Positions 16,646 to 52,552 of a stretch of 64,000 bases of DNA are shown one piece after another. Position numbers and translations under genes: made by a program. Position 1 is the first letter of the stretch. Each line of letters starts with the position of its first letter. A model generated the notes under the pieces. That model was not told where the DNA came from and searched no databases. It worked only from the letters and a program-made list of their open reading frames with translations. Origin of the DNA: Octopus sinensis. Lineage: Eukaryota. The stretch is taken from NCBI RefSeq assembly GCF_006345805.1, contig NC_043004.1, positions 96,100,001 to 96,164,000 of the forward strand, read 5' to 3'.

Positions 16646-17262
16646 TGACGGGGTGCCGAAAAGTTTGTGGCTTTCGGTTAAAACAAAATGCAGGAGGATC
16701 AGTTAATTACGATTTTATTCAATACTAGCAGTATCGCCCGGCGTTGCTCGGGTTTGTAAGGGAAATAACTATATAAGCATTTTTAGAGATATAAAGTATA
16801 ATAGCCATCTCAATATGGCTAACCACAAATGGGGGGGGGTTACTGTAGCTTTTTACGTTCTGAGATATAATAATAAATTTTTAGAGATTTACTTCCCTTA
16901 TATATGCTAAAAATGCATTAAATATCGGAAAAAAATTATGGTAATTTTTTTTTAAATCGTAGACTCATCGTATATATATATACACCCAGAAGGGCTCGAT
17001 ATGAATCACGACTATAAGATACCCGCTTTTGGTTAAACTGCACCGCAAAATGTGGGAGTAGTTAGGAATCTAAATCGTAGGAGACAGACACTCACACAAC
17101 TTCACTTTTATATATAAAGATATTCCCCTCTCAGATTCACACATTTATTGCATTGATCCTTCAGTTCTCCTAACCCCTGTTAAAGAACTTGGAAGGTTGG
17201 GCCTCCAACCAAACCTTTCGTGATAACCTTCAAGCCAGGAAATCTTCTGCACTGTCTTATAC
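16646..17262. mobile_element. Mariner-derived MITE interrupted by a Helitron
   Basis: Colinear with the intact copy at 36259-36474 once 16725-17120 is removed. Confidence 0.85.
16725..17120 (-). mobile_element. Non-autonomous Helitron (long variant)
   Basis: Minus-strand TC...cccgagcaacgccggg-cgatactg-CTAG; A|T insertion site. Confidence 0.9.
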
Positions 17263-30044: not shown

Positions 30045-31950
30045 AAAACAAAAGATGAAGACAGGTGTATAAACAACAAGCAAGTGTATTATATTCACGC
30101 TCGGGAAGGTGAGAAAGTCTTTTACGTTTCGAACCTACACTCTTCAACAGAAAGGAACACGAAGAAATAAACAGAGAGAAAATAAACTTTTGGATTTAGC
30201 GGTCAATCATGGCGACTGGTTGGACAAAGGTAGTTAGACAGGAGAGATAGGAAGAAGGGGAGATATAAAAGTACTGGTAATCCCAAAATGAAGGTGCGTG
30301 TGCGTGTGTGTATGTGAGAATGTGTGTGTGTGCATGTGGATAGGGGCTGGTGACTGACGTGTGCATGTGTGCGTGTGTAAATGTGTGCGTCTGTAATGTG
30401 TAGGTGTGTGGATGATGGTGTGGGTGCTGGGAAGTGGTCAGTGCTAGTGTGTGCGGAGTGGTGTGGGATGGTGTGATATGATGTGGTGGTGTTGGGTGCA
30501 GGTTTAGGTTGAGGATGTGGGGTAGCGGTGAGGTGTGTGGGAGTGGAGTATGGATGGAGGGGTTATCAACGAAAGGAGAAGGTGGGTAGGAGTGAAGAGA
30601 GCAAGTAGGTGTCAGATGAAGAGAGGAGAGGAGGGCGGTCAGATGAAAAGGGGAGGAGAGTTTAGCCCGTGTGTCACAAAGGAGCGAAGAGAAAAAATAA
30701 ATCCTGTTCACGGCGAAGGTGAGAATCCAGATGGCCCCTGTACAAGAATCCGGATGGCCCCTGTGTCTGAACACAGACAGGTGTTGTAATGAATGGCCGA
30801 GAGAGCGGAAATAGCGTGAGACTGGGGTGTCACTACTAACTCTAATGTCTCAGAGGTCCTCCGCGAACTGGTCAGCCAAGCGGCGTTCAGTTTGACCAAC
30901 TTACAAGGAAGGACACAAAGAGTAGGAGATGCAGTAAATGATGTTGATAGCAGTGCAGGTAAAGGAGTCAGTGATATGATAAGGACGATGATGGGTGCCT
31001 GTGAAGATGGTAGTGTTGGAGAGTTAGGTGCAAGTGCGGCAGCATGAGTAGGCGCAGAGGAACGAGCCAGATTGGGAGGTGGGGTTAGGGAAGAAACTTT
31101 GGACCAGGATATCACGTAGGTTGTGGGCTCGTTTTAAGGTGGGAAGGGGTAGGTTGGGAAGATGTGCAAAGTAGAGGGGTCGAACCGGGGTCACCGGAAG
31201 GCTCAGAGAATGGTGCGTTGAGGGGCGGGATGGAGGAGTAGTAGATGAGGGGAATGGGGGGTGGGTAATGGAGAACCAGTTGCGAGGAGAGAGAGCAGTG
31301 GTATGGTCCACTGAACGTGCTCTGGCAAGGGTGGTGTGGATAGTGGTGATGGGATATCCACGAAGAATGAATGAAGGGGCGAGCCACGAGTTGAGACTGA
31401 GTCTCAAAGTCATGGTTGTCACTTCTTCCATCCTGCCCTCGAATTCTCCTGCACCATTTCCAAAACTTCCGTCGCCTTTCTCGACATTTTGGTTAACAAA
31501 CACAGCTCAACTCTCATTACCTCCATCCACTACAAACACATCGAGTTACACTCGTACCTGCACAGATGGAGAACTTGGTGTGAGTAGGGTAGAGGGAGGA
31601 GAAGTTGAGGTATGAGTGTGAGTCGGTGTGAGTTGCGTATGTTGACCGAAATGTCGAGAAAGGTGACTGAAGTTTTGGAAATCCATCGAGGGAAGGATGG
31701 AAGGATTGAATAAAAGAGAGGAAGGAGTCTAGTTGTTCACGGGAGAGCGAAGTTGCATCGATACTGTCATCAACATAACGACCGTATAGTTCGGCAGTGG
31801 GACCAGTGAATCGTGAAAATATTTAGACCTCAATGTAACCAACGAACAGGTTCGCATAGTTGGGGCCCGTTCTCATTATCATAGCTATTCCCGAGACCTG
31901 TTGGTCAAACTACCCCACAAACGAGAAGCAGTAAAGGGAGAGAACAAGTT
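30045..31950 (-). mobile_element. Penelope-like element remnant with terminal pLTR (family P)
   Basis: RT motifs GPNYANLFVGYIE and YGRYVDD (~31760-31870); HNLRDILVQS..C..CCRTC linker; pLTR carrying an HHR-like motif at 30116-30156. Confidence 0.85.
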
Positions 31951-40763: not shown

Positions 40764-42170
40764 AAATATAGGGTAGCGAATTTTTTCCAGAAATTTCACT
40801 ACCAGTGGCCTAGCATGAATAAAAAGGCAATAGAGAATATATTCTCAATATAAAATAGTGTACATTTAAACACAAGAGAAACTGCCTTCAACAAGTAGTT
40901 TTACACGCTAGAAGAAGTAGTCAAAATGACCAAAACCACATTTAAGAGCAATCTTCAAAAGGAATGAAAAATAAAAACTTTTACCTTGTTATTGTGTTCC
41001 GGTCAGACCTTGGTTTCAAAATTTTTTTTAGCAAATAAAATAATTTGCTAGGCGAATTTCTCATCAGTAACTGCGCCATAACACTAACATATAACTAAGA
41101 GACGAATAACATGTGTCTCATCGTTATACATTATAATTTTCCAAATTCACCGCGCGAGCGCAGTTTTAGTCCGCAGTGAATGAATATATGCTGAACCAAT
41201 CTTCTAAAAATTGTTAAAAACATATACGTAAAATATAGGGTAGCGAGTTATTTTTTTTTAGAAACTTCACTACCAGTGGCCTAGCATGTATAAAAAGTCA
41301 ATAGACAACATATTCTTAATATAAAATAGTGAACATTTAAATATTTAATCTTTTCTTTTGAAGATTGCTCTTAAATGTGATTTTGGTCGTTTTGACTACT
41401 TCTAGCATGTAAAACTGCTTGTTGAAGGCAGTTTCTCTTGTGTTTAAATTTACAACTTTTCGAACCCTAAATTTATTATCAAATTTGATAATTGATTTTC
41501 TAGTTGCTAAAACTACATTAATTTCATTGTGGATGAGGCCAGATTTATTATGCACGAACCATAGGGTTTTATTAAGTTTGATATGATTAATAGAGGAATA
41601 AAAACTACAAATATCAAACTGGATAAATTTAGTGCTTAGTTTATTATCAATAGAGTTGAACCAGTCTTTAACCGTGAATGAATTAGACCATAAATTAAGT
41701 TTTTTTTTAAAGTTAAGGACGGAATGTACTTATCAATAATATTTTTACTAAGTACACCAATATCAAAGCTAGAAGGACTGATAAGACGGAGAGCTGGGTT
41801 ACTGAAGAAGTTAGGTTTGTGGTCTTGCTGTTAATTTCCTTGGTGATATTATGTAGATATCTCAGATGTTTATTCCTTAAGGAGAAACGATGGAATTTAA
41901 CATTCTTAACAATAGACTAGAGGTGAGCTTCAAACTGTTTTAATCTTGGGTTAGGAGGAGGATTGTTTTTAGATTTGAACAATTTACTGAATTCAGAAAT
42001 TTGGTCATTGGAAGGAGGTTCGATATTCTTATTATCTAAGAAGAAAGCTTGCCATCTGATACGATTAATAAAAGAGTTGGTCTCATTACTGAGTTGTTTA
42101 AGGAATACCTTTCTTGGGGAAATAAGTATATCCTTAAGAGAGGCGTTTATATTAGAGGTTTCCATTTGCA
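40760..42170 (-). mobile_element. Penelope-like element (second family) with tandem and inverted pLTR pieces
   Basis: SLKDI..FINRIRWQAFF..FKSKNNPP..LKQFE; DHKPNF..RLISPS; RT motif A FIQFDICSFYSSI; direct repeat 40762-40870/41229-41341; inverted repeat 40866-40961/41355-41448. Confidence 0.85.
41002..41071 (-). ncRNA. Type I hammerhead ribozyme motif within a PLE pLTR
   Basis: GTTA CTGATGA GAAATT cgcc TAGCAAAT tatttt ATTTGCTA aaaaa AATTTT GAAAC CAAG GTC TGAC. Confidence 0.85.
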
Positions 42171-42890
42171 GTAACTAGTTCAGTTTCAGGTTTTGATACT
42201 GAAAATCCTTGTATATATATATATATATATGTTTAATTTACAAGAAAAGATCCGGAGAAATAGTTACCATGGCATTCAAATGTCACATAAGAACTTTAAA
42301 ATATTAGTAACCACACATACATGGATAATAATTCGAAGGAGAAGTGAGACGTATTTTGGAGAACATAAGAGAAATGGAAAATGGAAATAAACACACAATA
42401 TGTTATTTAAATCATTTATATCACCGACATATATGTTTCGATGGATATATTAAAATTAATCCTCGAGGAAAAATTATGTGGCAAGAGATTATAAACAACA
42501 GTGTTCATTAATAAGCCACTTTTATATATGTAAGAAATTAAGAAATTATAAAATATAATATATAATATATGATAAAACAAAAGCTGGATAGAGAACGCTA
42601 GTAATTTTAAAATACCGTTAAGAAATTTGACGTCATAGGACGAGAGAAGAGAAGGAATCTATTTCAATTAATGTATGTCCCCTTTGCCTAATAACTAACT
42701 TTCACTTGATTATTTTCATTCCATATATCCCATTCATTGCTTAGTCATTTCTATCCATTTGTTTATTTCTCTATTACTCCTTTAATTTGCTTTCTCACTT
42801 CTTCCTCTTCTTCTTTCGTCCCATGACGTCAAAATTCTTAACGGTATATTAAAGTTACTAGCGTTCTCTATCCACCTTTTGTTTTTCATA

Positions 42891-43283
42891 TCTATATATA
42901 TAAAAGTGAGGTTGTGTGGTGTCTGTCTCCTACGATTTAGATTCCTAACTACTCCTACATTTTGCGGTACAGTTTAACCAAAACCCGGTATCTTATAGTT
43001 GTGATTCATATCGAGCCCTTCTGGGTATTAGCGCGCGTCTACGATGAGTCTACGATTTAAAAAATAATTTACCATAATTTTTTCCCATTTTTAATGCATT
43101 TTTGGCATATATAAGGGAAGTAACTCTCTAAAAATGTATTATTAAATCTCAGAACGTAAAAAGCTACAGTAACACCCCCCTTTGTGGTTAGCCATATTGA
43201 AATGGCTATTATACTTTACATCTCTAAAAATGCTTATATAGTTATTTCCCTTACAAACCCGAGCAACGCCGCGATACTGCTAG
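42891..43283 (+). mobile_element. Non-autonomous Helitron (long variant)
   Basis: TC start, CTAG end, A|T site; matches 4862-5166 and 16725-17120. Confidence 0.9.
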
Positions 43284-50035: not shown

Positions 50036-50433
50036 TCTCTTTTTACTTGTTTCAGTCATTTTGACTGCGGCCATGCTGGTGCACCGCCTTTAGTCGAATC
50101 AAATCGACCCCGGGATTTATTCTTTTGTAAGCCCAGTACTTATTCTATCGGTCTCTTTTGCCGAACCGCTAAGTGATGGGGACATAAACACACCAGCATC
50201 GGTTGTCAAGCAATGCTAGGGGGACAAACACAGACACACAAACATACACGCACATACATATATATACATATATACGACGGGCTTCTTTTCAGTTTCCGTG
50301 TACCAAATCCATTCACAAGGATTTGGTCGGCCCGAGGCTATAGTAGAAGACACTTGCCCAAGGTGCCATGCAGTGGGACTGAACCCGGAACCATGTGATT
50401 GGTAAACAAGCTACTTATCACACAGCCACTCCT
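50036..50433 (-). mobile_element. SINE family A, full length
   Basis: Consensus match. Confidence 0.92.
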
Positions 50434-50934
50434 GGTCATTTTCTGCAGCAACACCATCATGGTCATTACTCCAGCGTGCAGTTTAGCACACCATTTATTC
50501 ACATCTCCCCCTCCCTCTTCTGCTTTTTTCTTTTCTCTCTTTTCTGTTTTTATCGCCCTCCTTTTTCGGTTGCTTTGTATTTGAATGTTATGATTTAAAA
50601 AGTGGTCTGTTACATAACTGAATGTAAAAAAAATTTTTTAATTAAACAAAAAAAAAGCAAAAATAATGATTGGTCAATGCATTCTACTTCTCATCTTTAT
50701 CATTACCAGCATTTCAAGATGGCATTAATAAATCTCCGAACGAGATGTAAACAGTAACCGCTCGACAACGTAAAGTGAACTAGCCATCTCAATGTGGCTA
50801 GCCACTGGGGGTGGGTGTTACTGAAGCTTTTAGCCCCAGGAGATCATCATCTCCAGCTGGCTTTAGACAAACTTTCTGTGCCCTTATGATATTCGCAAAG
50901 GGAGGTCATCCCCTCTCGAAAACCTAAGTGATAC

Positions 50935-50977
50935 GCACGGACTATAGTTTCGAGGTTTTTGCCTCTTATCAACGTAC
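50935..50977 (-). ncRNA. Minimal type I hammerhead ribozyme, U3-A8 variant
   Basis: GTACG TTGATAA GAGG caaaaa CCTC GAAAC TATA GTC CGTGC. Confidence 0.85.
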
Positions 50978-51072
50978 GGTAATCACCGGTTTATCAGTGA
51001 CAGTGGTTGCTGGGAAAAACATTACATAAATATTCGCAAACAGGTCTCTCCAATCGAAAACCGGTGATTACT

Positions 51073-51115
51073 GTATGTTGACGAGAGACAAAACCCTCGA
51101 AACTATAGTCCGTGT
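51073..51115 (+). ncRNA. Minimal type I hammerhead ribozyme, U3-G8 variant
   Basis: GTATG TTGACGA GAGa caaaac cCTC GAAAC TATA GTC CGTGT. Confidence 0.75.
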
Positions 51116-51359
51116 GTATCACTTAGGTTTTCAAGAGGGGATGACCTCCCTTTGCAAATATCAGAAGGGCACAGAAAGTGTGTCTAAAATCAGCTGGAGA
51201 TGATGATCTCCTGGGGCTAAAAGCTTCAGTAACACCCACCCCCAGTGGCTAGCCACATTGAGATGGCTAGTACACTTTACATTTCAAGATGGTTTTCATG
51301 TTATAACAGGTATCTATTTTGTGGGGTTTAGTGTTATGACCAAATTAATTCTTTGGCCT

Positions 51360-52018: not shown

Positions 52019-52277
52019 CAGGCATAGGAGTGAATGTGTGGTAAGTAGCTTGCTTGCCAACCACATGGTTCCACGTTCAGTCACACTGCGTGGCACCTTG
52101 AGCAAGTGTCCCCTACAATAGCCTCGGGCTGACCAAAGTTTGTGAGTTGATTTGGTAGATGGAAACTGGAAGAAGCCTGTCATATATATGTATATACATA
52201 TCATCATCATCATCATCATCATCATCGTTTAACGTCCGTTTTCTGCGCTAGCACGGGTTGGACGGATATATGTATAT

Positions 52278-52331
<54 letters not shown>

Positions 52332-52552
52332 CGTGTGTGTATATGTTTGTGTGTCCGTGTTTGTCCCGCCAACATCACTTGATAACCGATGGTGGTGTGT
52401 CACATCACTGTAACGTAGCGGTTTGGCAAAAGAGACTGATAGAATAAGCACTAGGCTTCCAAAGAATAAGCCTTGGGTGTGATTTGCTCGACTAAAAGTG
52501 GTGCTCCAGCATGGCCACAGTCAAATGACTGAAACAAGTAAAAGAGTAAAGA
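52019..52552 (+). mobile_element. SINE family A with a SINE C 3' fragment (52200-52266, minus) inside its microsatellite
   Basis: The two halves of A are separated by (cat)n-gtttaacgtccgttttc..cacgggttggacgg. Confidence 0.85.

Follow-up and report, generated by a model that had tools for sequence, protein, structure and literature searches.

Retrozymes, and LINEs that target other transposons, are already known (PMC7229834, PMC4494074). Either LINEs or Penelope-like elements (PLEs) have been named as the source of the enzymes that move animal retrozymes (PMC7229834), and a preprint argues for a PLE origin of retrozymes from co-occurrence and pLTR similarity (bioRxiv 10.64898/2026.07.22.740005). 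PLE insertions contain an inverted, 5'-truncated copy and a tail of 30 to 40 bp at one end (PMC8557442, PMC3846280). In vitro, a PLE protein cuts and extends both DNA strands; it starts at two neighboring positions on the RNA, which mark the limits of the tail (PMC11167929). Among LINEs, the target-specific members of the Tx1 clade include Tx1L in Tx1D, Tx1-Mar in Mariner-N4, Tx1-8_Crp in LTR elements, and Keno in U2 (PMC4494074). As for hammerhead ribozymes, covariation at U3-A8 has been recognized (PMC3088659), and both U3-A8 cores and opposite-strand hammerhead pairs 100 to 700 bp apart have been reported in Schistosoma (PMC4209133). A recent annotation of octopus repeats includes L1-Tx1 and Penelope families, with no word on ribozymes in its main text (PMC13282606). 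Here we describe a hammerhead-bearing insertion in a 64,000-nucleotide stretch of the Octopus sinensis genome (the window) and the repeat family to which it belongs.

RESULTS

Structure of the window copy

The element lies between two copies of CATTTCAAGATGG, a target-site duplication (TSD) that matches at 13 of 13 positions (50710-50722 and 51280-51292). Allowing for 340 placements, the chance of such a match is about 1.5e-5. In contigs from sequencing runs, whose listed matches scarcely extended into the flanks and so bear on neither expression nor polymorphism, no junction lacking the element was found. The features, in window coordinates, are as follows.

50710..50722, plus strand: left TSD, 13 bp
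50723..50769, minus strand: tail, segment T of a 355-bp unit; its 3' end faces outward and is likely the distal start of reverse transcription (two such starts are described in PMC11167929)
50770..50992, minus strand: left arm, segment A, inverted and 5'-truncated within the LINE target site
50934..50978, minus strand: minimal type I hammerhead with a U3-A8 core and every stem paired; predicted cut between 50940 and 50939, with a dimer predicted to be necessary
50993..51057, plus strand: spacer, segment S, which lies directly upstream of arm A in tandem copies
51050..51063, plus strand: empty LINE target site, CCAATCGAAAACCG, located on the 5' strand of the extended stem I; in other copies, LINE and gag-only insertions have it duplicated on either side
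51058..51279, plus strand: right arm, segment A, whose tail-less end is likely the proximal start of reverse transcription
51072..51116, plus strand: second hammerhead with the family-typical U3·G8 core and two private stem/loop II changes, one of which breaks a pair; predicted cut between 51110 and 51111
51280..51292, plus strand: right TSD, 13 bp, whose first C also fits the next base of the family

The original prediction had described a 13-bp TSD, inverted arms around a 65-nt spacer, an extension on one side, a lack of coding capacity, and one hammerhead in each arm, all of which we recovered. A repeat search returned arms of 226 nt at 93% identity (50767-50992 and 51058-51283). With the bases that overlap the TSD set aside, the arms span 222 nt and are 93.7% alike, CpG accounting for 7 of their 14 mismatches. 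The spacer measures 65 nt, and the extension of 47 to 48 nt occurs on the left side alone. The longest ATG-initiated open reading frame (ORF) in the element is 42 aa. Scanning the 64-kb window on both strands for the hammerhead pattern gave two sites and no others, one in each arm of the element. The description of the copy as young was not borne out, as its 93.7% arm identity compares with 99.5% in locus L057 and 98.2% in L100. Arm identity ranges from 90.9 to 99.5% in nine other palindromic copies, and two of the nine are more decayed. The window copy is a genuine but partly decayed, ordinary member of its family.

A larger inverted pair at 50124-50433 and 52026-52463 was considered as the TIRs of the element and rejected, as we took it for two copies of an abundant SINE-like repeat. 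These oppositely oriented copies flank the element and could add an outer duplex in read-through RNA.

The 355-bp unit and its family

Mapping the tail, arm, and spacer onto 30 loci resolved a repeating unit of 355 bp with the order T(48)-X(20)-S(65)-A(222). The unit occurs as tandems, truncations, and head-to-head inversions whose inner junctions differ between copies, and its tandem arrays hold 2 to 4 units. The window copy consists of an inverted T-A joined to S-A. This changes the view of the palindrome, which had been taken as the transposing unit: it is the 355-bp monomer that moves instead, and the palindrome would arise as a by-product of insertion. Exact patterns detected 548 tails, 258 tail-to-X junctions, and 44 young-type hammerheads, and the reversed control patterns detected 0. 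In older subfamilies, the two arms of an insertion resemble one another (97.3% in L005 and 96.7% in L026) more than they resemble the window copy. A natural unit monomer folds at a z score of -5.0. The element is an insertion of a non-coding hammerhead repeat, classed here as a non-LTR retrozyme. Its tandem unit falls within the 150 to 450 bp of retrozymes, carries a type I hammerhead, and has no ORF above 42 aa, and the TSDs exceed the 4 bp used to define such elements, most being 11 to 15 bp with a mode of 12.

The window also contains mini-copies of about 85 bp at 43125-43232 and 16779-16888, with the A-end/T-end layout and 12-bp TSDs. Because both share the TSD and have similar flanks, they probably descend from a single old insertion that was amplified as part of another repeat. 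Such amplified mini-copies may inflate the 3693 family candidates of the genome search. Besides the family of the window copy (family A), we encountered two other hammerhead repeat families (flanks of L165-L187, and L203 and L204). Family B has a U3-A8 core and a CATG loop, and family C has a CCGACGA core and a CACGTG loop.

Insertion ends carry a Penelope-type footprint

In 41 of 43 two-ended insertions, the tail is present at one end only, and TSDs are about 12 bp; this is the inverted, 5'-truncated copy with a one-ended tail that typifies Penelope-type insertions. Among the loci ranked by score (47 clusters, window copy included), 20 of 21 two-ended insertions combine an A-end with a T-end, and one has two A-ends. 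Among the loci ranked by position (46 clusters), the combination is found in 21 of 22, the remaining one having two T-ends. Truncated or interrupted ends were left out of these counts (26 of 47 clusters, or 25 of 46 minus the window copy, and 24 of 46, respectively), and the asymmetry among the insertions counted has a P of about 1e-10 against 0.5. TSDs of at least 11 bp were found in 19 of 20 score-ranked and 18 of 21 position-ranked insertions versus 35 of 300 mismatched-flank controls, with several TSDs falling in (TA)n and hence carrying little information. Two fixed points, separated by 48 nt, mark where the insertions stop, one at either end. Their ends lack poly(A) and lie in unrelated, varied AT-rich DNA.

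The tail asymmetry, the TSDs of mostly 11 to 15 bp, and the covariation of the hammerhead bear out the proposal of a non-autonomous PLE-type or retrozyme insertion as opposed to a MITE. The symmetric TIRs, uniform length, and fixed TSD of a MITE or TIR DNA transposon are not seen; because the ends are asymmetric and both structure and TSD are variable, we ruled out this class. By analogy with the PLE protein studied in vitro, we infer that the two-start-site mechanism (PMC11167929) operates here too.

Hammerheads of the window copy

The minus-strand hammerhead (50978-50934) is one base wider at either end than originally predicted. As predicted, it is fully paired; it has a 6-bp stem I, the core UUGAUAA (U3-A8), a 4-bp stem II, the palindrome CUAUAG, and GUC. 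The plus-strand hammerhead has the core UUGACGA (U3·G8) and a stem II of 3 bp only. Rfam gave no hammerhead match within 50880-51180, and the 150 of 248 matches listed for the whole window were microsatellite driven only. The U3-A8 core had been regarded as covariant. However, 42 of 44 exact matches in the subfamily of the window copy are U3·G8, and TTGATAA occurs in the window arm only. Both core changes fall in one CpG, so the U3-A8 pair of the window likely reflects decay of the CpG at both bases, by which a Watson-Crick pair was restored by chance. In another subfamily, U3-A8 is genuine.

The claim that the element could yield both long dsRNA and self-cleaving RNA from either strand fared poorly in structure prediction. 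The full window transcript folds at -413 kcal/mol, and the predicted pairing probability of stem I is 0.000 in both full-length transcripts. For transcripts starting in the spacer, predicted stem I pairing is 0.37 to 0.46 on the minus strand and below 0.01 on the plus strand. Given this loss of stem I in full transcripts, dsRNA and cleavage are predicted alternatives. Read-through RNA of the window copy would fold into a 222-bp duplex that masks both ribozymes. In cofolding, two copies of the minus-strand motif form the intermolecular stem III of a double hammerhead, which the plus-strand motif fails to do. As substrates, the young U3·G8 copies L057 and L100 represent the family better, and the window minus-strand motif is a useful U3-A8 comparison.

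The ribozyme across the family

We parsed 131 of 145 distinct arms, comprising 84 with U3·G8, 29 with U3-A8, and 18 with C3-G8, the core type of L026. Loop III is palindromic in 125 of the 131. A set of 25 hand-picked variants, which includes two from a distant family, shows two-sided changes at 15 of 20 pairs versus 0 in 500 shuffles, a contrast that relatedness inflates. The family thus shows the conserved core, stems I and II, palindromic loop III, and covariation of a minimal type I hammerhead. U3·G8 is a wobble pair, and our literature search found no paper on the activity of hammerheads that carry it.

Two of 20 internal 3' ends lie exactly after GUC, one at L111/L112 (a duplicated locus, counted once) and one at L255. 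Both cut-ended segments also begin at most 7 nt from the previous cut (P of about 0.005, post hoc). Internal 5' starts showed no enrichment at the cut site among 67 starts. Genomic copies that end at the predicted cut are a hint, drawn from sequence, of cleavage in vivo. For an anole PLE, RNA-seq did not show such cleavage (PMC11167929). Cut-bounded genomic copies bear on whether weak minimal hammerheads cleave in vivo. At L111:9259-9260 and in L112, the hammerhead stops precisely at GUC, where it is joined to the 5' region of a gag-only element, as expected of a template jump onto a cleaved RNA end.

Search for an autonomous PLE partner

No autonomous PLE sharing the unit or its ends was found at 64 sampled loci (14 Hydra-like, 8 Poseidon-like, and 30 GIY-YIG plus 12 longer stretches), a small sample against 4213, 20183, and 5029 candidates. 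The footprint by itself therefore carries the case for mobilization by PLEs. The labels Hydra-like, Poseidon-like, and Neptune-like were assigned from motifs. Hydra-like PLEs (L086-L099) have intact ORFs of 778 to 906 aa, hammerhead cores with a long stem II, and TA targets. The Poseidon-like PLE (L188-L195) is very abundant, with the 20183 candidates, and no hammerhead was found in the repeats of the 8 loci. A young Neptune-like PLE (L307-L318), encountered in the GIY-YIG search, has intact ORFs of 780 to 781 aa, most copies being 97 to 99% alike, and carries its own U3-A8 minimal hammerhead. The young intact PLEs that we saw end in (TA)n, in contrast to the varied AT-rich sites of the retrozyme. 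The unit also matches at L081, L191, L294, and L314, in what seem to be independent insertions; of these, we inspected L081 and L314. Broken PLE copies also occur in the window, one Hydra-like at 40900-42300 and one Poseidon-like at 30100-31900.

A LINE and a gag-only element in the retrozyme

Longer loci of the family carry a 5.5-kb LINE and a 1.65-kb gag-only element between S and A, and CCAATCGAAAACCG is duplicated on both sides of these insertions. In the LINE, ORF1 has a CCHC knuckle below the cutoff, and ORF2 has Exo_endo_phos (APE), RVT_1, and zf-RVT domains above it. The closest solved structure to its reverse transcriptase is human L1 ORF2p. Its nearest named homologue, from Argonauta hians, is 56% identical among the 120 homologues listed, which include no named Tx1 reference. 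ORF2 was uninterrupted at none of 11 loci with LINE copies, though six copies are 98.8 to 99.7% alike. The possibility that the unit had captured LINE ORFs as cargo, in the manner of Terminons, was rejected on account of the target duplications on both sides.

Target specificity was counted from 3' UTR searches, using the best 30 of 40 scored loci for each element (246 and 314 candidates); loci were classed by eye, and the query loci and one duplicate pair were counted in. For the LINE, 28 of 30 3' ends are on target, 23 directly before a hammerhead arm and 5 before the target plus a stacked element, and 2 are off target. This exceeds the more than 20% of flanks by which a Tx1-clade LINE is considered target specific (PMC4494074). 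For the gag-only element, 26 of 30 3' ends are on target (7 in family A, 14 in family B, and 5 in family C), and 4 are elsewhere. In all three families, the insertion point lies 32 to 38 nt upstream of the ribozyme core. Families B and C have almost no sequence that can be aligned with A, yet a similar extended stem is predicted.

Independent insertion is evident from three kinds of loci. A 5'-truncated LINE with a 13-bp TSD lies inside a tandem array (L131/L200), and insertions of different elements are stacked in a single target site. A second LINE family, 65 to 83% alike to the first, is stacked in the same site (L298 and L299). A composite of 7.85 kb, made of unit, LINE, and gag-only element, is bounded by one 14-bp TSD (L100). 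The 3' variants of the LINE track the target subfamily. Six on-target truncated gag-only copies lack the upstream target, which indicates that some gag-only copies hitchhiked or were later deleted. Another LINE copy (L300:1036-6583) is inserted, with a TSD of its own, at the 5' end of a gene that Rfam scores as U2 snRNA (183.6 bits); the first bases of the gene resemble the retrozyme target. The 5' end of this LINE copy carries 17 nt of the retrozyme target, and these suggest that its transcription began within the retrozyme. We infer that the LINE and its gag-only derivative are site-specific parasites of the retrozyme that are transcribed from within it.

DISCUSSION

We read the window element as a head-to-head insertion of two partial 355-bp copies, likely made in one event by PLE-like enzymes acting in trans, of a repeat that elsewhere carries L1/Tx1-like LINEs at a fixed site; we put the probability of this reading at about 0.8. 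For the insertion itself, we picture a unit RNA, multimeric or circular, that is copied into cDNA at each of the two cut DNA strands; synthesis would begin at the T end in one cDNA and at the A end in the other, and both products, being truncated, would be joined head to head. The ribozyme, predicted to act as a dimer, would cut tandem transcripts down to RNAs of unit length.

The resident L1/Tx1-like LINE, not a PLE, might instead move the retrozyme, with the inversion produced by twin priming and the unit serving as a LINE terminal repeat. The LINE is the only reverse transcriptase found physically within the unit, its TSDs (about 13 to 19 bp) overlap the retrozyme TSDs in length, the L100 composite sits inside one 14-bp TSD, and the sampled loci yielded no PLE partner; LINEs are, moreover, among the mobilizers named for animal retrozymes (PMC7229834). 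We nevertheless consider mobilization by the LINE unlikely. LINE ends are site specific (28 of 30, plus the similar motif at the U2 gene), whereas retrozyme ends lie in unrelated AT-rich DNA and lack poly(A), and the combination of two fixed starts, separated by 48 nt, and a tail on one side has been described as specific to PLEs (PMC11167929, PMC8557442). To a MITE or foldback DNA transposon with a chance hammerhead-like motif in its TIRs we give almost no weight. Long inverted arms, a TSD, and no ORF would suit such an element, as would the recurrence of the T-A/S-A layout in L005, L013/14, and L026. Against it stand ends that are asymmetric in 41 of 43 insertions, inner junctions that vary by copy, common tandem direct units and 5' truncations, variable TSD length, and a covarying ribozyme.

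The association with the LINE and gag-only element could also reflect hitchhiking, in which a few ancestral insertions were amplified as retrozyme composites without ongoing site specificity. A single composite insertion is what L100 resembles, and both the correspondence of LINE 3' variants to target subfamily and the missing upstream target of the six truncated gag-only copies fit this account. It would not explain the independent 5'-truncated insertion with a TSD in an array (L131/L200), the stacking of different elements at one site, the second LINE family (65 to 83% alike) at that site, the gag-only element at the corresponding position in families B and C, despite their near-total lack of sequence in common with A, or the copy with its own TSD at the U2 gene. 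Hitchhiking is therefore improbable in our view, marginally more so than movement of the retrozyme by the LINE.

Returning to site-specific parasitism of a PLE-mobilized retrozyme, we tentatively propose, at somewhat less than an even chance, a three-tier system made of PLE enzymes, a retrozyme RNA with a PLE footprint, and a LINE/gag-only clade specialized on hammerhead retrozymes. The LINE would enter three retrozyme families, diverged almost beyond alignment, at the base of their extended stem I. Its TSD would rebuild the stem, so that the LINE would be transcribed from the retrozyme, and the host ribozyme would trim the LINE RNA about 60 nt downstream. A position kept across diverged targets bears on whether the endonuclease reads sequence or structure. 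Retrozymes add a target class for site-specific LINEs. In the main texts of the literature, we found no report of LINEs that target retrozymes or hammerhead repeats, or of Tx1 elements that target Penelope. The targeting of a retrozyme by a LINE is apparently new, and an earlier annotation, for instance in Repbase, is possible.

HAL1 (half-L1) is an ORF1-only LINE derivative. The gag-only element, an ORF1-only LINE derivative of about 1.65 kb, is like HAL1 in this respect; it differs in sharing the site specificity and the 3' motif of its LINE. The LINE itself resembles Tx1-clade elements (PMC4494074) in being an APE-RT LINE with a zinc-knuckle ORF1, inserted at a fixed position in another repeat, with stacks and TSDs. 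Unlike the targets described there, the octopus target is a ribozyme-bearing retrozyme, and the position is kept across three families with different target sequences; membership in the clade is putative, on the basis of domains and targeting.

The retrozyme shares with PLEs (PMC11167929, PMC8557442, PMC3846280, PMC4209133) partial tandems, an inverted 5'-truncated copy, a one-ended tail, AT-rich targets, and a minimal hammerhead with a palindromic loop III. It differs in that the unit has no RT/GIY-YIG ORF and no partner among the sampled loci, the tail is 47 to 48 nt versus 30 to 40, and the TSDs are about 12 bp versus 8 to 10 in Adineta. Like the animal non-LTR retrozymes (PMC7229834; bioRxiv 10.64898/2026.07.22.740005), the octopus family has a non-coding tandem unit (355 bp versus 350 to 390 bp in mussel), a type I hammerhead, TSDs above 4 bp, a self-paired monomer, and coexistence with PLEs. 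In contrast to those families, most octopus copies bear a PLE footprint directly, being short, joined head to head, and tailed on one side, and the cores are mostly U3·G8. Targeting by a LINE, seen in the octopus family, appears in the available text of neither PMC7229834 nor bioRxiv 10.64898/2026.07.22.740005. The octopus family bears on which enzymes move retrozymes through a mechanistic footprint, the pair of fixed ends, separated by 48 nt, that 41 of 43 insertions display.
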